A DNA stretch of 11,721 nucleotides from IMG/VR virus record IMGVR_UViG_2663762849_000017, one strand, 5' to 3'. Shown here in pieces: positions 351-7,936 of this stretch (within the stretch, counting starts at the first letter, position 1; each line of letters opens with the position of its first letter). Below the pieces are notes generated by a model. That model did no database searches. It was not told where the DNA came from and saw only the letters and a program-made list of their open reading frames with translations. A program made the position numbers and the translations under genes. The DNA comes from a virus. Taxonomy: Duplodnaviria > Heunggongvirae > Uroviricota > Caudoviricetes.

Positions 351-484
351 TTTTTGAGTCTCGATATTAGCTGATAACCCAATACCTGAGTTATTCACTG
401 ACTCCGAATCTGTTACGTTTCTGCCTTTATTGCGATACGTAGTATCCCCTTAATTTACACCCGCTTTGTCTGCGAGGTGGGGTT

Positions 485-700
485 ATGAAATCCATGGATA
501 AGTTAACAACGGGTGTCGCCTATGGCACCTCAGCAGGTAGTGCCGGGTACTGGTTTTTACAGTTGCTCGATAAAGTCACGCCCTCACAGTGGGCGGCAAT
601 AGGTGTGCTGGGTAGTCTGGTATTTGGCTTGCTGACGTATCTGACAAACCTTTATTTCAAGATTAAAGAAGATAAGCGTAAGGCTGCGAGAGGTGAATAA
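485..700 (+). CDS. S: Class II holin (pinholin), phage 21 S21-like, 71 aa
   Basis: ATG at 485 preceded by a GAGGTGGGG Shine-Dalgarno. The N-terminus MKSMDK carries the dual-start motif (Met1/Met4) typical of S21 holin/antiholin. Two hydrophobic helices are followed by a charged C-terminus [13 protein letters not shown]. The protein closely resembles the phage 21 pinholin as I recall it. Its stop overlaps the next ATG (TAATG). Confidence 0.85.
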
Positions 701-3700
701 TGTCGCCATCATTACGCAAGGCTATTGCTGCTATTGGTGGTGGGGCTGTTGCCATAGCGTCTGTGCTCATCACTGGTCCGAGTGGTGACGATGGCCTGGA
801 AGGTGTCAGCTACATACCATACAAAGATATTGTTGGTGTATGGACTGTATGTCACGGGCATACAGGAAAAGACATCATGCTCGGTAAAACGTATAAAGGC
901 AGCAGTAAGGGGCATACCCCGCGCGAAGCGAAGGACAACCTGAAATCCACGCAGTTACTGAGTGTGATCGATGCCATCAGCGAAGGGCCGATTGAAGGTC
1001 CGGTGGATGGGTTAAAAAGCGTGCTACTGAACAGTACGCCGGTGCTGGACACTGAGGGGAATACCAATATCTCCGGTGTCACGGTGGTGTTCCGGGCAGG
1101 TGAGCAGGAGCAGACTCCGCCGGAGGGGTTTGAATCCTCCGGCTCCGAGACGGTGCTGGGTACGGAAGTGAAATACGACACGCCGATCACCCGCACCATC
1201 ACGTCGGCAAACATCGACCGTCTGCGTTTTACCTTCGGTGTGCAGGCACTGGTGGAAACCACTTCAAAGGGTGACCGGAATCCGTCGGAAGTTCGCCTGC
1301 TGGTTCAGATACAGCGTAACGGTGGCTGGGTGACGGAAAAAGACATCACCATTAAGGGCAAAACCACCTCGCAGTATCTGGCCTCGGTGGTGGTGGATAA
1401 CCTGCCTCCGCGCCCGTTCAATATCCGGATGCGCAGGATGACACCGGACAGCACCACAGACCAGCTGCAGAACAAAACGCTCTGGTCGTCATACACCGAA
1501 ATCATCGATATGAAACAGTGCTACCCGAACACGGCACTGGTCGGTGTGCAGGAGGACTCGGAGCAGTTCGGCAGTCAGCAGGTGAGTCGTAATTATCATC
1601 TGCGCGGGCGCATTCTGCAGGTGCCGTCGAACTATAACCCGCAGACGCGACAATACAGCGGTATCTGGGACGGAACGTTAAAACCGGCATACAGCAACAA
1701 CATGGCCTGGTGTCTGTGGGATATGCTGACCCATCCGCGCTACGGCATGGGGAAACGTCTTGGTGCGGCGGATGTGGACAAATGGGCGCTGTATGTCATC
1801 GGCCAGAATTGCGACCAGTCGGTGCCGGATGGTTTTGGTGGCACGGAGCCGCGCATCACCTGTAATGCCTGGCTGACCACACAGCGTAAGGCGTGGGATG
1901 TTCTCAGTGATTTCTGCTCGGCGATGCGCTGTATGCCGGTATGGAACGGGCAGACGCTGACGTTCGTGCAGGACCGGCCGTCGGATAAGGTGTGGACCTA
2001 TAACCGCAGTAATGTGGTGATGCCGGATGATGGCGCGCCGTTCCGCTACAGTTTCAGCGCCCTGAAGGACCGCCATAATGCCGTTGAGGTGAACTGGATT
2101 GACCCGGATAACGGCTGGGAGACGGCGACAGAGCTTGTGGAGGACACGCAGGCCATTGCCCGTTACGGTCGTAACGTCACGAAGATGGATGCCTTTGGCT
2201 GTACCAGTCGGGGGCAGGCACACCGAGCCGGGCTGTGGCTGATTAAAACGGAACTGCTGGAAACGCAGACCGTGGATTTCAGCGTGGGCGCAGAAGGGCT
2301 TCGCCATGTGCCGGGCGATGTTATTGAAATCTGCGATGATGACTATGCGGGTATCAGCATCGGCGGGCGCGTGCTGGCGGTGAACAGCCAGACCCGGACG
2401 CTGACGCTCGACCGTGAAATCACTCTGCCATCCTCCGGTACCACGCTGATAAGCCTGGTTGACGGAAGCGGCAATCCGGTCAGCGTGGAGGTCCAGTCCG
2501 TCACCGACGGCGTGAAGGTAAAAGTGAGCCGGGTTCCTGACGGCGTTGCCGGATACAGCGTGTGGGGGCTGAAGTTGCCGACGTTGCGCCAGCGCCTGTT
2601 CCGCTGCGTGAGTATCCGTGAGAACGATGACGGCACGTATGCCATCACTGCCGTGCAGCATGTACCGGAAAAAGAGGCCATCGTGGATAACGGGGCGCAC
2701 TTTGACGGCGACCAGAGCGGCACGGTGAATGGTGTCACGCCGCCAGCGGTGCAGCACCTGACTGCCGAAGTCACCGCAGACAGCGGGGAATATCAGGTGC
2801 TGGCGCGCTGGGACACGCCGAAGGTGGTGAAGGGGGTGAGCTTTATGCTTCGCCTGACCGTGGCAGCGGATGACGGCAGTGAGCGGCTGGTCAGCACGGC
2901 CCGGACGACGGAAACCACATACCGCTTCACGCAACTGGCGCTGGGGCGGTACACGCTGACAGTCCGGGCGGTAAATGCGTGGGGGCAGCAGGGCGATCCG
3001 GCGTCGGTATCGTTCCGGATTGCCGCACCGGCAGCACCGTCGAGGATTGATCTGACGCCGGGCTATTTTCAGATAACCGCCACGCCGCATCTTGCCGTTT
3101 ATGACCCGACGGTACAGTTTGAATTCTGGTTCTCGGAAAAGCGGATTACCGATATCAGGCAGGTTGAAACCACAGCCCGCTATCTTGGCACGGCGCTGTA
3201 CTGGATAGCTGCCAGTATCAATATTAAGCCGGGCCATGATTATTATTTTTATATCCGCAGTGTGAATACTGTTGGCAAATCGGCATTCGTGGAGGCTGTC
3301 GGTCAGGCGAGCGATGATGCTTCCGGCTATCTGGATTTTTTCAAAGGCCAGATAACTGAATCCCATCTCGGCAAGGAGCTGCTGGAAAAAGTCGAGCTGA
3401 CGGAGGATAACGCCAGCAAACTGGAGGAGTTTTCGAAAGAGTGGAAAGACGCCAACGATAAATGGAATGCCATGTGGGGCGTCAAAATTGAGCAGACCGA
3501 AGACGGCAGGCATTATGTCGCGGGTATTGGCCTCAGCATGGAGGATACGGAGGAAGGCAAACTGAGCCAGTTCCTGGTTGCCGCTAACCGTATCGCGTTT
3601 ATTGACCCGGCAAACGGGAATGAAACGCCGATGTTTGTGGCGCAGGGCAACCAGATATTCATGAACGAAGTGTTCCTGAAGTATCTGACGGCTCCCACCA

Positions 3701-4287
3701 TTACCAGCGGCGGCAATCCGCCGGTATTTTCCCTGACACCGGACGGGCGGTTGACGGCGAAAAATGCCGATATCAGCGGTAACGTGAATGCGAACTCAGG
3801 GACGCTCAATAATGTCACGATTAACCAGAACTGTCGGATTCTGGGAAAACTGTCTGCCAACCAGATTGAAGGTGATATTGTCAAAACGGTGGGAAAAGCC
3901 TTTCCGAGAAATGGCAGTTATGCCAGCGGTACAATAACGGTCACTGTGTACGATGACCAGGCTTTTGACCGTCAGATAGTAATCCCACCCGTTCTGTTTC
4001 GCGGTGGTAAGCATGAAAACTTCAACAGCAACAACCAACAGTCATACTGGTATTCAACCTGTAAGCTGCAGGTACTGAAGAACGGACAGGAAATCTTTCA
4101 GCAACCCGCGACGGATGTCAGCAGGGTATTTTCATCCGTCATTGATATGCCAGCGGGACACGGCCATGTCACCCTGACTTTCAATGTTTCTTCATATGGT
4201 GCAAATAACTGGACGCCAACGACCAGTATCAGCGACCTTCTTGTTGTCGTGATGAAGAAATCAACAGCCGGTATCAGTATCAGTTGA
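700..4287 (+). CDS. J: Chimeric ORF: N-terminal ~65 aa of a SAR endolysin (R21-like lysozyme) fused in frame to a lambda J-like tail-tip host-specificity protein (residues ~66-1195)
   Basis: Residues 1-65 ([65 protein letters not shown]) match the signal-anchor-release domain and start of the catalytic domain of phage 21 endolysin. From [22 protein letters not shown] onward the protein is collinear with lambda gpJ (recalled from memory). There is no ATG at the position of the native J start, so translation depends on the R start. The ORF is uninterrupted over 3.6 kb. The last ~140 aa differ from the lambda J C-terminus and are lower in GC. Confidence 0.85.
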
Positions 4288-4305
4288 ATTTTATAACCCA
4301 AATAC

Positions 4306-4331
4306 GGGCGCCAGAAATGGCGCCTTTTTTA
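4306..4331 (+). terminator. Rho-independent terminator between J and stf
   Basis: GGCGCC (4307-4312), loop AGAAAT, GGCGCC (4319-4324), followed by TTTTTT (4325-4330). Confidence 0.6.
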
Positions 4332-4345
4332 TTTGTGGAGTGAAT

Positions 4346-6406
4346 ATGGCAGTACAGATTTCAGGCGTGCTGAAAGACGGTGCAGGAAAACCAATACAGA
4401 ACTGTACTATTCAGCTCAAAGCAAAGCGTAACAGCACCACGGTACTGGTGAACACGGTGGCCTCTGAAAATCCGGATGAAGCCGGGCGTTACAGCATGGA
4501 TGTTGAGTATGGCCAGTACAGCGTCACCCTGCTGGTTGAAGGTTTTCCGCCTTCACATGCCGGGACCATTACCGTCTATGAAGGTTCCAGACCAGGTACG
4601 CTGAATGATTTTCTCGGTGCCATGACGGAAGATGATGTCATGCCGGAGGCATTGCGTCGTTTTGAGGTAATGGTGGAGGATGTGGCACGCAACGCTGAAG
4701 CCGCCTCTCAGAGCGCAGCGGCAGCAAAGAAATCAGAAACAGCAGCGGCATCGTCCAGGAACGCGGCGAAAACATCAGAGACGAATGCAGGTAACAGCGC
4801 GAAAGCGGCAGCTTCTTCAAAAACAGCCGCACAAAACGCAGCAACAGCGGCAGAACGTTCAGAGACAAATGCCCGTGCGTCAGAAGAAGCCTCCGCAGAC
4901 AGTGAAGAGGCTTCCCGCCGTAATGCAGAGTCAGCCGCTGAAAATGCCGGAGTCGCCACCACAAAAGCGCGGGAGGCTGCAGCAGACGCAACAAAGGCCG
5001 GGCAGAAAAAGGATGAGGCTCTGTCGGCAGCGACACGAGCTGAAAAGGCGGCAGACCGCGCAGAAGCCGCAGCGGAAGTGACTGCAGAGCCCTATGCGAA
5101 TATAGTGCCGCCGCTGCCTGATGTGTGGATACCGTTTAACGATTCACTGGATATGATTGCGGGTTTTTCTCCGGGCTATAAAAAAATAGCTATTGGTGAC
5201 GATGTGGTTCAGGTCGCCAGTGATAAACAGGTTAATTTCAGTCGCGCATCAACGGCAACATATATCAACAAATCTGGCGAACTGAAAACGGCGGAAATTA
5301 ATGAGCCGCGATTTGAGTGTGATGGCCTGCTTATTGAGGGACAAAGAACGAACTACATGCTCAATTCGGAAAGTCCAGCCAGCTGGGGGAAGTCATCAAA
5401 CATGGATGTGCCCGAAACCGGGACGGATAGTTTTGGTTTTACTTATGGAAAGTTTGTCTGCAACGATTCTCTGGTTGGGCAAACTTCGGCTATTAATATG
5501 GCATCAATTGCTGCAACAAAGTCAGTTGATGTCTCAGGCGATAACAAGTACGTGACAACCTCATGCCGTTTTAAAACAGAACGACAGGTAAGGTTACGTA
5601 TACGGTTTGATAAGTATGATGGTAGTGCAACAACTTTTCTTGGCGATGCGTACATTGATACGCAAACGCTTGAAATTAATATGACAGGTGGTGCTGCCGG
5701 CAGAATTACGGCACGAGTCAGGAAGGATAAGACCACGGGCTGGATTTTTGCAGAGGCAACGATTCAGGCAATTGATGGAGAGTTAAAAATAGGCTCTCAG
5801 ATACAGTATTCTCCTGAGCAGGGTGGGGCAACAGTATCTGGTGACTATATTTATCTTGCCACCCCACAAGTAGAGAATGGACCATGTGTATCATCATTTA
5901 TTATTTCAGGAGGCAGCGCAACGACAAGAGCCAGTGATTTGGTTAGTATCCCCACCAGAAATAATCTTTATAAGTTACCATTTACTTTTTTACTTGAGAT
6001 TCATAAAAACTGGGATATTGCACCAAACGCCGCACCCCGCGTGTGGGATATAGCAGCAGCCAATACCGGGCAATCAGCAATTGCAGCAATCAACAGAGGT
6101 AGTGGTAAGTTATATATGAGTCTGTCAAACCCTTCAGGCTCGTATGTTAATAGCGCAGCGACAGATGTATTTGCAGAGAAAACCACATTTGGATGTATTG
6201 CAAAAGCTGATGGTCACTTTCATGTGGTGACAAATGGTAAAGCGGTTAATGAAGTTTATTGTGAATATAATGGCGTGACCGCTGATAAAAATATCCGATT
6301 TGGAGGGCAGACGAATACTGGAGAACGACATCTGTTTGGCCATATTCGCAATTTCCGCATATGGCATAAAGAATTAAATGACAGGCAATTAAAAGAGGTC
6401 GTATGA
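4346..6406 (+). CDS. stf: Side tail fibre protein (lambda Stf-like N-terminus, Ala/Ser-rich shaft, divergent lectin-like C-terminal domain)
   Basis: The N-terminus MAVQISGVLKDGAGKPIQNCTIQLKAKRNSTTV...GRYSMDVEYGQYSVTLLVEGFPPSHAGTITVYE matches the lambda Stf N-terminal domain as I recall it. It is followed by an Ala/Ser/Glu-rich repetitive shaft. The C-terminal ~430 aa are encoded by lower-GC DNA and end in NFRIWHKELNDRQLKEV, a motif typical of concanavalin-A-like/LamG jelly-roll domains. I place the start at ATG 4346 with GGAG 6 nt upstream; the ORF track starts at GTG 4340. Confidence 0.8.
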   Translation: MAVQISGVLKDGAGKPIQNCTIQLKAKRNSTTVLVNTVASENPDEAGRYSMDVEYGQYSVTLLVEGFPPSHAGTITVYEGSRPGTLNDFLGAMTEDDVMPEALRRFEVMVEDVARNAEAASQSAAAAKKSETAAASSRNAAKTSETNAGNSAKAAASSKTAAQNAATAAERSETNARASEEASADSEEASRRNAESAAENAGVATTKAREAAADATKAGQKKDEALSAATRAEKAADRAEAAAEVTAEPYANIVPPLPDVWIPFNDSLDMIAGFSPGYKKIAIGDDVVQVASDKQVNFSRASTATYINKSGELKTAEINEPRFECDGLLIEGQRTNYMLNSESPASWGKSSNMDVPETGTDSFGFTYGKFVCNDSLVGQTSAINMASIAATKSVDVSGDNKYVTTSCRFKTERQVRLRIRFDKYDGSATTFLGDAYIDTQTLEINMTGGAAGRITARVRKDKTTGWIFAEATIQAIDGELKIGSQIQYSPEQGGATVSGDYIYLATPQVENGPCVSSFIISGGSATTRASDLVSIPTRNNLYKLPFTFLLEIHKNWDIAPNAAPRVWDIAAANTGQSAIAAINRGSGKLYMSLSNPSGSYVNSAATDVFAEKTTFGCIAKADGHFHVVTNGKAVNEVYCEYNGVTADKNIRFGGQTNTGERHLFGHIRNFRIWHKELNDRQLKEVV
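4680..5090 (+). repeat. Ala/Ser/Glu-rich low-complexity repeat region inside stf (fibre shaft)
   Basis: Reiterated motifs such as AAxxSETNA / AASS / AAENA in the translation. The GC-rich repetitive codons produce spurious ORFs in other frames and on the opposite strand. Confidence 0.6.
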
Positions 6407-6681
6407 AAGATTTAACTTTGAAGTTTCATGACAAACTGCAGTTTAAGGCCTTCCTGTCATCTCTTGGCTGGGCGGAAGATGAAGACCTCCAGAATAAACT
6501 GTTAGTTGATGAAATTGGTTTCACCTACACAGAAACAGGGGTAACAGAAGAGGGAGAACCTGTCTGTATCCGGAATGATGGTTATTTTGTCAACATTCGC
6601 ATTCTTGATGACTTGTTTGATGTTTCTGTATTCTCTGATTATGTCGTGGAGCTGGAAACACCGCTTCGGGAATGGAGCTGA
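6403..6681 (+). CDS. Hypothetical acidic 92-aa protein, translationally coupled to stf; possible tail-fibre accessory/chaperone by position only
   Basis: ATG at 6403 overlaps the stf stop (ATGA), with AAAAGAGG 4 nt upstream. The product is acidic and has no hydrophobic segment. It does not resemble the lambda Tfa N-terminus and its family was not recognised. Confidence 0.5.
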   Translation: MKDLTLKFHDKLQFKAFLSSLGWAEDEDLQNKLLVDEIGFTYTETGVTEEGEPVCIRNDGYFVNIRILDDLFDVSVFSDYVVELETPLREWS

Positions 6682-6693
6682 AAGGAGGAAATA

Positions 6694-7134
6694 ATGGATA
6701 TAAGCCCCTTACTTCATGCACTTTGTGCTGTGGCTGCGCAGATACTGGTTGGTCTTTTTACCGGAAACTGGGCTTACGGAGCGATAGCCGGTTGTACGTT
6801 CTTCATTGCGCGTGAACATACCCAGGCAGAATATCGCTGGATTGAAATGTTCGGGCATGGCAAGCGAATGAATATGCCGTGGTGGGGCGGTTTTGATCCG
6901 CGTGCTTGGGATGTGGCAAGCCTGATGGATTTTGCTGTGCCGGTGGTGGCGTGTCTGCTGGTCTGGCTGTTGGTTAATCGTGGGCGAAAAAAGGTGAGCT
7001 GTATATGCAACGGAGGAAGAAACCCCGTTGCTGGAAGCCAGGAAAAAGTATCGGGTGTTGCTGTCCTCGGATGTTGTGCTAATTGGGTGATAACAGATCC
7101 TGTGTATGGGAGTTTCCCTTTTTGCGTGCGTTGA
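6694..7134 (+). CDS. Hypothetical small integral membrane protein (about 3 predicted TM helices), 146 aa; C-terminal extent uncertain
   Basis: Strong Shine-Dalgarno AAGGAGG 5 nt before ATG 6694, 12 nt after the previous stop. Hydrophobic segments are LLHALCAVAAQILVGLFTG, AYGAIAGCTFFIA and VASLMDFAVPVVACLLVWLLV, followed by RGRKK. The last ~18 codons overlap the convergent sitD 3' end, so the true C-terminus is uncertain. Confidence 0.5.
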   Translation: MDISPLLHALCAVAAQILVGLFTGNWAYGAIAGCTFFIAREHTQAEYRWIEMFGHGKRMNMPWWGGFDPRAWDVASLMDFAVPVVACLLVWLLVNRGRKKVSCICNGGRNPVAGSQEKVSGVAVLGCCANWVITDPVYGSFPFCVR

Positions 7135-7936
7135 TGCTGGTAACGGCAAACGTCATGATGAACAAAACCGCGAATAAGACGACAATCGTCGGAGCTGGTG
7201 CGCTGTCGATAAAAAAGGACAACCAGACACCAGTCATTGACACTATTACCGATATGCCAGTCGCCAGTAGGAGCGCAATATGAAAGCGTTGTGTCAGGAG
7301 TACCGCAATGGCGCCAGGCGCAATGAGCAGAGAAATGGAGAGAATGATACCTACCGCTTTCAGCGTCGCCACAATGGTCAGAGAGACCATGCACAGCAGC
7401 CCATAATGCAGCCATCTCGTATGCAAACCGCTTACCTGCGCCTGTTGATAATCAAAGCTGAACAGCAAAAAATCCCGCCATTTTACGCTAATAACAAGTG
7501 TAACCAGCCCGGCAATAATCATCGTCTGGATTATATCGCCGATGGTTATCCCGAGCATGTCGCCGAAAAGAATATGGTCAAGATGTACGTCTGGTTTGAC
7601 TGCAATATACAAGATCAGACCTGCGGCAAACATGCCAGAAAAAACAATCCCCATCACTGTATCTTGCTTGATTCGGCTGTTGTCTTTCAGGTATCCCGTC
7701 GCCACCGCGCAGAATACTCCGGCGACGAATGCCCCTGTAGCCAAAGGTAACCCCAGAATCCAGGCAAGCACGATGCCAGGAAAAACCGCATGACTCATCG
7801 CGTCACCCATCAGTGCCCAACCTTTCAGGACCAGAAAGACTGACAGCAGCGCACAGGGTATGGAAACTACCAGTGAAATCAGCAGTGCGTGACTCATAAA
7901 GGTGAACTGCAGTGGCTCCAGTAATAATGCCATCAT
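7079..7936 (-). CDS. sitD: Mn/Fe ABC transporter permease SitD
   Basis: 285-aa polytopic membrane protein, last gene of a four-gene operon (binding protein, ATPase, two permeases). Its start overlaps the sitC stop by 4 bp. Confidence 0.85.
   Translation of the reverse strand: MMALLLEPLQFTFMSHALLISLVVSIPCALLSVFLVLKGWALMGDAMSHAVFPGIVLAWILGLPLATGAFVAGVFCAVATGYLKDNSRIKQDTVMGIVFSGMFAAGLILYIAVKPDVHLDHILFGDMLGITIGDIIQTMIIAGLVTLVISVKWRDFLLFSFDYQQAQVSGLHTRWLHYGLLCMVSLTIVATLKAVGIILSISLLIAPGAIAVLLTQRFHIALLLATGISVIVSMTGVWLSFFIDSAPAPTIVVLFAVLFIMTFAVTSINARKKGNSHTQDLLSPN

Follow-up and report, generated by a model that had tools for sequence, protein, structure and literature searches.

Two small genes behind a side tail fibre gene of a phage-21-like prophage: a candidate fibre assembly partner and a predicted membrane protein of a widespread family

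In phages with Tfa-type proteins (Tfa of lambda, TfaR and TfaQ of Escherichia coli K-12, U of Mu and G of P2), a gene right after the fibre gene is co-translated with it and travels with the C-terminal specificity region of the fibre. Small envelope proteins can also be encoded beside a receptor-binding gene, as in the case of Llp of T5 and Cor of the phi80/T1 type, which are outer-membrane lipoproteins masking FhuA. Other small phage or prophage proteins, namely HK97 gp15, T4 Imm and P22 SieA, reside in the inner membrane and have their own expression signals or act early, and P22-like serotype-conversion genes (gtrABC, oac) are located behind the tailspike gene. Here, we analyzed two small open reading frames, ORF1 and ORF2, that follow the side tail fibre gene stf in an 11,721-nucleotide (nt) stretch of DNA, the IMG/VR virus record IMGVR_UViG_2663762849_000017 (hereafter the window). 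A lambdoid, phage-21-like prophage at icd makes up the window, with ORF1 and ORF2 at the end of its late (tail) operon. Comparison across phages and bacterial genomes shows that each gene is a module of its own. The most likely role of ORF1 is that of an assembly factor specific to this fibre, standing in for Tfa as a functional analogue and not a homologue, and ORF2 is probably a host-derived accessory membrane protein. In the window the prophage is defective and the stop codon of ORF2 is lost. This explanation, with ORF1 as fibre assembly partner and ORF2 as accessory inner-membrane protein, is in our judgement an even bet when taken as a whole.

ORF1 and ORF2 are real genes under purifying selection, because the proportion of nonsynonymous differences (pN) is much lower than that of synonymous differences (pS). 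For both genes together, pN was 0.04-0.33 and pS 0.10-0.88; ORF1 compared with its diverged homologues gave 0.24-0.33 and 0.82-0.88, respectively. The ratio of nonsynonymous to synonymous rates (dN/dS) of ORF2 against diverged homologues was 0.15-0.41 where measurable. The ATG of ORF1 (6403-6405) overlaps the TGA of stf (6404-6406) as ATGA, and ORF2 starts 12 nt past the stop of ORF1. A preliminary description of the locus had named this overlap, the spacing and the ribosome-binding sites, including the AAGGAGG ahead of ORF2, all of which were borne out by the sequence. The protein encoded by ORF1 is indeed acidic and 92 amino acids (aa) long, as had been stated there (isoelectric point 4.17; 20 Asp and Glu versus 8 Lys and Arg residues). 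The low GC content ascribed to both genes applies to ORF1 (41.9%) and not to ORF2 (52.9%). Annotations of phage 21 and RefSeq already list the two gene products as hypothetical proteins. ORF1 is a full-length member of phrog_1361 (E=3.2e-42, aa 1-91 on profile positions 1-91 of 92) and matches the related family phrog_18574 (E=1.7e-6), while the conserved part of ORF2 is a full-length member of phrog_1443 (E=7.4e-58, aa 1-96 on positions 1-96 of 97). All these families are without functional annotation.

The fibre encoded by stf consists of a conserved N-terminal domain (Pfam phage_tail_N, E=5e-67) and a glycan-binding C-terminal region (aa 261-688), which contains a GTA-head-spike-fibre domain (NCBIfam GTA_spike_fiber, aa 331-531) and a LamG/galectin-like domain (Laminin_G_3, aa 562-683). 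Its PHROG matches were phrog_1419 and phrog_5939. In 80 of 80 IMG/VR loci, an ORF1 homologue was found directly after a fibre gene whose last 428 aa are homologous to stf aa 261-688 (35-100% identity), and at these loci the fibre stop overlapped the ORF1 start or was within 2 nt of it. The same cassette of fibre C-terminus and ORF1 was present in two virulent phages, the T5-like Tequintavirus IrisVonRoten and the T1-like Drexlerviridae phage MatMar. The C-terminal 428 aa of stf were 52% identical to the proximal lateral fibres of both phages, and ORF1 identity was 50-56%. Since virulent phages retain ORF1, the gene belongs to the fibre module and does not serve a lysogeny function. A more distant version of the fibre-ORF1 pair was detected in an Aeromonas myovirus, and remote ORF1 relatives of Comamonas, Pantoea and Chelativorans prophages likewise have related tail proteins as neighbours. 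In Comamonas and Pantoea (L104, L108, L115), the ORF1-like domain (phrog_18574) forms the N-terminal half of a 170-190-aa protein encoded just upstream of an ORF2 homologue. The C-terminal half of this fusion matched only phrog_6034, a family of unassigned function; a DUF4376 or Tfa-like identity of this half was rejected accordingly.

Further support for a role in place of Tfa is provided by the Rac locus. In EC0026B, this locus matches K-12 over the first ~400 nt of stfR and then once more starting 112 nt ahead of the tfaR stop. The interval, which in K-12 holds the remainder of stfR and the initial 464 nt of tfaR, is occupied by the middle and C-terminal part of stf, ORF1 and ORF2. Thus, the ORF1 cassette takes the place of tfaR, and therefore this fibre type works without Tfa, with ORF1 at the position of the chaperone gene. 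In our model ORF1 would be the dedicated partner of one type of side or lateral fibre, that with GTA-head-spike-like and galectin/LamG-like C-terminal domains, and its translation would be coupled to the fibre gene. It most likely aids folding or trimerisation of the C-terminal region of the fibre, as Tfa does for classical Stf, and it may remain bound to the fibre. The preliminary description had suggested that the acidic protein could be a fibre chaperone; the 80 loci, the virulent phages and the replacement at Rac support this by comparison, and the function itself is one that we infer.

Variation along the fibre was also recorded. Across homologous fibres the segment aa 561-640 of the LamG-like domain is hypervariable (15-40% identity). 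The last ~48 aa (641-688) are the best-conserved part of the C-terminal region, with 50-87% identity in 9 of 10 comparisons. In a sliding-window identity scan of the fibre, no segment stood out as specifically co-inherited with ORF1.

The ORF1 family is small, comprising 47 clusters in a word-indexed search and 77 representatives in an exhaustive profile search. Conserved motifs are MKDLxLKF, DxIG, GY[FH]VNxR and TPxR[VE]W. The AlphaFold2 model of ORF1 is a small alpha/beta protein with a predicted local distance difference test score (pLDDT) of 90, and its fold showed no resemblance to solved Tfa structures. Tfa profiles of Pfam and NCBIfam matched neither ORF1 nor any of 26 family members at E<=0.05. 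In agreement with the preliminary description, ORF1 and ORF2 are not Tfa-like, as no such match was found for either in Pfam or NCBIfam. Indeed, Pfam, NCBIfam and PADLOC returned nothing for ORF1 or ORF2, neither as single sequences nor as whole family alignments, with PADLOC defence profiles searched up to E<=1, and PDB sequence profiles gave no match below E=0.06. Remote-homology searches thus placed neither protein in a well-characterised family, and neither matched any curated family or solved fold. The Tai systems and LtfC of DT57C, described in the literature, consist of proteins unrelated to ORF1 and ORF2. Several large proteins (P0190, P0195, P0212-P0214 and P0218; 985-2744 aa) matched the ORF1 profile at about positions 33-67, its central beta-hairpin, in 4-8 repeats, which suggests that this region of ORF1 resembles the repeat unit of some large repeat proteins.

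ORF2 homologues formed 543 clusters, nearly all of 95-102 aa, from gamma-, beta-, alpha- and deltaproteobacteria. Identity across E. coli, Aeromonas and Comamonas was 55-70%. The residues H8, Q16, C34, D79, P83 and C87 are invariant in the helices, and the loop is near-invariant. In the AlphaFold2 model (pLDDT 92), helices span residues 4-23, 26-53 and 74-96; a fold search with ORF2 retrieved generic helical bundles only, and none of 30 members had a match in Pfam, NCBIfam, PADLOC or PDB. The three transmembrane segments that had been proposed from the sequence agree in number with the three helices of the model. The frame taken for ORF2 there (146 aa) is longer than the conserved gene, which has 97 aa. 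The phage 21 record cites TMHMM with two transmembrane domains and the loop outside. The second hydrophobic stretch of ORF2 is short and weak. The loop contains on average 5.6 Lys and Arg residues compared to 0.5 in the C-terminal tail, which would put the loop in the cytoplasm. The native C-terminus (..LLVNRG) is without a charged tail. In the 234-kb Aeromonas phage AVP1 (L164), the similarity of an 87-aa gene to ORF2 is confined to the conserved loop and the third helix (aa 36-88, 47% identity); this gene adjoins a helicase/terminase-like gene, not tail genes.

In temperate phages, ORF2 was located directly after the receptor-binding gene, whatever its type, with a gap of 0-16 nt or a 4-nt overlap. 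It follows the lambdoid stf-ORF1 pair, a P2-like fibre with an S74 chaperone domain, a Desulfovibrio tailspike and the Stf of a phage-plasmid. In JEP4 and 611R6 it follows P22-like tailspikes just ahead of int; in 611R6 an O-acetylase gene lies between tailspike and ORF2, with ORF2 two genes downstream of it. A Comamonas prophage encodes a 72-aa ORF behind a J-like protein, followed by ORF2, and in mEp460 the 95-aa ORF2 variant is followed by dinI and int. The same remnant of tfa was found behind ORF2 in the E. coli loci examined. A tie of ORF2 to the sit metal transporter was rejected, since the adjacency is specific to this cargo insertion and ORF2 has many other neighbours.

ORF2 orthologues were also encoded in bacterial chromosomes. 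All five Aeromonas loci (L006, L092, L094, L098 and L099; four or five species) have a convergent 286-aa ORF, the same in each, downstream of chromosomal ORF2. In A. rivipollensis (L006), this ORF is a RIO1 kinase gene, and pirin is encoded on the other side of ORF2. At two sphingomonad loci (L151, L153), ORF2 follows ligA outside prophages. Elsewhere, chromosomal ORF2 adjoined unrelated housekeeping genes, and its neighbours in alphaproteobacteria included no recurring partner gene.

ORF2 was not found beside the fibre-ORF1 cassette in the fetched stretches of IrisVonRoten and MatMar, and its presence varies among otherwise related phages, as is characteristic of morons, accessory genes dispensable for virion production. 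Moreover, its identity does not track that of ORF1: 63% identity of ORF1 was seen with 94% of ORF2, and 100% of ORF1 with the 95-aa ORF2 variant. Because ORF2 identity is independent of ORF1 identity across loci, the two genes, previously presented as a pair, are separate modules. Co-occurrence with the C-terminal type of stf was accordingly found for ORF1, at all 80 loci; ORF2 is not tied to it.

Among the described systems, Llp and Cor share with ORF2 the position of a small envelope protein gene beside a receptor-binding gene. They are lipoproteins of the outer membrane, whereas ORF2 is helical and an integral membrane protein by prediction. Unlike them, ORF2 stands beside glycan-binding fibres and spikes of many types and has chromosomal orthologues. 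Its N-terminus (MDISPLLHALC) has no basic n-region, Leu precedes Cys11, and Cys11 is not conserved in the family. A Cor/Llp identity was therefore rejected (no lipobox, wrong fold), as was Lom/Ail (all-helical model, no Pfam Ail_Lom match). As family membership, the earlier suggestion of a Cor- or Lom-like role was not supported: lipobox and beta-barrel are absent, the model is helical, and orthologues lie in chromosomal, non-phage contexts. An exclusion-type role is possible from the position behind receptor-binding genes only. The small inner-membrane proteins HK97 gp15, T4 Imm and P22 SieA may be the closest analogues, in that theirs is the mechanism ORF2 could most plausibly share. No sequence relationship between them and ORF2 is known. 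Their own expression signals or early action distinguish them from ORF2, which is far more conserved and widespread and a core gene in some bacteria. The serotype-conversion genes gtrABC and oac share with ORF2 of JEP4 and 611R6 the position behind the tailspike, but with 97 aa ORF2 is too small for such an enzyme and had no GtrA match. Sphingomonads, which have chromosomal ORF2 copies, are without lipopolysaccharide O-antigen.

We propose that ORF2 is a 97-residue three-helix inner-membrane protein of a large, unnamed family found across the Proteobacteria, which temperate phages would repeatedly have put behind a receptor-binding gene. Most likely, it works as an accessory protein within the membrane of infected or lysogenic cells, where its target would be a conserved component of the envelope or of phage entry. 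Candidate roles are blocking the genome entry of other phages or altering an envelope process. Alternatively, because of the invariant His, Cys and Asp residues, ORF2 could be a small enzyme or ion-binding protein.

The length of ORF2 differs between the window and its relatives. In the window the frame (6694-7134) encodes 146 aa, compared to 97 aa in phage 21, PhiR49_1 and the Rac prophage and 95 aa in mEp460. Phage 21, PhiR49_1 and EC0026B read GGG TGA where the window reads GGG CGA. The profile of phrog_1443 (97 positions) leaves the last 49 aa of the window ORF unmatched, and beyond aa 97 no homologue matched except the 146-aa cluster P0048. The extension runs through the last 58 nt of a tfa gene in the wrong frame, across the junction of phage DNA and sit cargo, and then 56 nt antisense into the 3' end of sitD. 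RefSeq labels the tfa stretch 'tail fiber assembly protein, missing N-terminus', and the tfa tail at the right joint of the Rac replacement is the same as window 7006-7063. An exact match over the 81-nt stretch around 6985 was obtained for 78 of 1743 E. coli records; 1634 were in the 95-99% band, where one mismatch in 81 nt corresponds to 98.8%. Among 24 IMG/VR loci with this version of the sequence, 4 had CGA and 20 TGA. The plaque-forming phages 4A7, Lambda_4C10, 1W and 3W were 99.9% identical over a 1-kb query, equal to one mismatch. These results show that the 146-aa ORF2 is a rare, lineage-specific stop-loss allele of a conserved gene of 97 aa. As for the intactness of the frames in related prophages, ORF1 and the 97-aa ORF2 are conserved, the 146-aa frame is not.

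The region also gave a sub-threshold match to the Rfam family IS009 (RF02111; 6923-7083, + strand; 51 bits versus a gathering score of 117, E=2e-10), which extends from the 3' end of ORF2 over the tfa remnant and across the sit junction. Rather than a working small RNA (sRNA), the match probably indicates that this segment is homologous to a tfa-region sequence of prophages. A paper on the NC-SV prophage concerns an sRNA in cI and not the stf-ORF2 region.

Phage 21 (OL657228) is 97.5% identical to window 3471-10300, from J through sitA, and the gene order in the window is S21 pinholin, R21'::'J fusion, stf, ORF1, ORF2, sitDCBA and the 3' copy of icd (Table 1). The lysis genes for the S21 pinholin and the signal-anchor-release (SAR) endolysin R21 occupy 485-894. 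In the R21::J fusion, the first ~65 codons of R21 are joined in frame to J from codon ~2-3, with the junction at about 894: window 484-895 corresponds to S21 and these endolysin codons, and the match to J starts at 894. The deletion spans Rz, bor, cos, all head genes and most tail genes, and the prophage is defective because of it. From S21 onward, the frames of the late operon still form an uninterrupted series. Of 5426 complete E. coli genomes, only 79 contained the R21::J junction, in 80 records altogether. This is nearly the count of the exact stop-loss stretch (78 records), and the best match of both was FDAARGOS_536; from the counts and this shared best match, we infer that stop loss and R21::J mark one decaying lineage.

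Between sitA and the icd copy, a low-GC stretch (10665-11164) has no counterpart in phage 21. Within it, the ORF at 10722-10961 (79 aa) features RNKLAH, an R-x4-H motif of the kind typically seen in HEPN domains, and had a weak PADLOC match to Cas13b (E=0.012). This ORF could be what is left of a gene of the abortive-infection type.

Table 1. Positions of the genes, signals and junctions of the stf-ORF1-ORF2 locus and its surroundings in the window.
Feature	Position	Strand	Remarks
S21 pinholin	485-700		
R21'::'J fusion ORF, 1195 aa	700-4287		
stf, 688 aa	4340-6406	+	conserved N-terminal domain, then glycan-binding C-terminal region aa 261-688
Shine-Dalgarno AAGAGG of ORF1	6393-6398	+	4 nt ahead of ATG
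ORF1, 92-aa acidic alpha/beta protein (predicted fold), phrog_1361	6403-6681	+	fibre-linked accessory, probable assembly factor
Shine-Dalgarno AAGGAGG of ORF2	6682-6688	+	5 nt ahead of ATG
ORF2, conserved part, 97-aa predicted three-helix membrane protein, phrog_1443	6694-6984	+	loop AREHTQAEYRWI..FG.GKR.NMPWWGGFD.R.W
CGA codon (T>C at 6985) where relatives have a TGA stop	6985-6987	+	alignment with phage 21, PhiR49_1, EC0026B
Unconserved read-through extension of ORF2	6988-7134	+	with codon 6985-6987: 49 codons plus stop
tfa 3' remnant	7006-7063	+	reads ..ATEEETPLLEARKKYRVLL in its own frame, not that of ORF2; 91% identity to K-12 tfaR nt 465-522
Junction of phage DNA and sit cargo	7052-7063	.	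plasmid sitD matches start at 7052-7059; sit-less prophages stop matching at 7063
sitD	7079-7936	-	convergent with ORF2; cargo outside the two-gene unit; from ORF list and phage 21 annotation
sitDCBA	7079-10528	-	
icd 3' copy	about 11456-11608		

Several observations weigh against the roles proposed above. For ORF1, these are the gene order in Chelativorans (L114), where the fibre gene is followed by ORF2 and then by the ORF1-like gene, and the position of ORF1 between proximal and distal fibre genes in several phages, which also fits an adaptor or joint. For ORF2, a simple consensus scan of the + strand at 5900-7400 found neither a sigma-70-like promoter nor an intrinsic terminator. In all phage contexts, ORF2 shows tight coupling to late genes, unlike a classical lysogen-expressed moron, and because such translational coupling is the rule its expression may be late and not lysogenic. 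The core chromosomal orthologues speak for a function in the cell that has nothing to do with phage exclusion, partial ORF2-like genes in large Aeromonas phages lie away from tail genes, and the topology is ambiguous between charge pattern and TMHMM. A literature search, including accession, FIG and PHROG identifiers, retrieved no functional data for either family. With regard to ORF1, a structural adaptor linking the C-terminus of a proximal fibre to a distal fibre protein would account for the second (distal) fibre gene that follows the ORF1 homologue in IrisVonRoten, MatMar, PhiR49_1 and Qin-type prophages, and for the annotation of the IrisVonRoten homologue as 'tail fiber protein'. The BASEL paper models the distal T-shaped fibre Gp24 of IrisVonRoten on the proximal Gp22 and does not discuss the small gene in between (PMC11990801). 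We consider the adaptor unlikely, given that no distal fibre gene lies behind ORF1 in the viable phages phage 21, mEp460, 4A7 and 4C10 and in about 1000 E. coli genomes, nor is there one at the ORF1 locus of the Aeromonas myovirus. An assembly partner of the fibre is the reading we prefer for this gene.

For ORF2, we think a housekeeping-type role rather unlikely. ORF2 would then be a small membrane enzyme or an ion- or metal-binding protein borrowed from hosts, with a benefit to the lysogen unrelated to phages. This is consistent with the syntenic chromosomal orthologues among housekeeping genes in Aeromonas and at the two sphingomonad loci, with the identity of 55-70% across bacterial classes, and with the invariant polar and Cys residues in the helices (H8, Q16, C34, D79, C87) next to the near-invariant loop; however, no enzyme or transporter family was similar by sequence or fold, and the recurrent position behind receptor-binding genes would be left unexplained. 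A membrane role in the lytic cycle together with the receptor-binding protein, either in lysis timing or in guarding progeny from ejecting into lysing cells, appears improbable. The close spacing or overlap with the upstream late gene in all phage contexts examined, the lack of an own promoter- or terminator-like site in the scan and a model with three helices, as in class I holins, would suit such a role. Yet the prophage already has its pinholin and SAR endolysin, with ORF2 outside the lysis cassette and without a charged C-terminal tail in its native form, and for the same reasons a holin was rejected; in addition, ORF2 was not found by the fibre cassette of the two virulent phages, and chromosomal orthologues exist. 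Finally, in this window both genes might be functionless leftovers of a decaying prophage, which we regard as possible but doubtful. The R21::J fusion took out all head genes and most tail genes, its junction is about as frequent as the exact stop-loss stretch, and the ORF2 stop is gone. Against decay, ORF1 is intact, the first 97 codons of ORF2 are 100% identical in protein to phage 21, the late operon retains its frames from S21 onward, and a C-terminal extension need not destroy ORF2 function.

A wider generalization can be formulated only tentatively, and we would not expect it to hold in full. ORF1 would found a Tfa-unrelated family of fibre partners for galectin/LamG-tipped fibres of sipho- and myoviruses, virulent as well as temperate. 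At the same time, ORF2 would found a class of inner-membrane proteins coupled to receptor-binding protein genes and equipped with a conserved polar intramembrane site; temperate phages with each of the three tail types would have acquired them from cellular genes as a means of controlling genome entry or an envelope process.

Both proteins lack a name, a Pfam family and a recognised fold. Three points were not contained in any annotation or paper examined: that the ORF2 gene has 97 aa and lost its stop in a particular lineage; that ORF1 is strictly linked to the galectin-tipped fibre class in virulent and temperate phages alike and replaces tfa; and that the ORF2 family is broad and present both in phages and in chromosomes. 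The length correction of ORF2 matters for annotation, as the 146-aa protein is a stop-loss allele and not a new protein. ORF2 is carried by 1738 of 5426 complete E. coli genomes (about a third), in up to 4 places per genome, and the exact stf-ORF1-ORF2-sitD arrangement by 1033 genomes (about a fifth). CFT073 and Nissle 1917 are among the strains with the ORF2 region. Should ORF1 prove to be the assembly partner of this fibre class, any exchange of receptor-binding modules in engineered phages would have to transfer it along with the fibre. Likewise, an ORF2 that prevents phage entry or modifies the envelope would represent a susceptibility determinant that is very common but has been overlooked.

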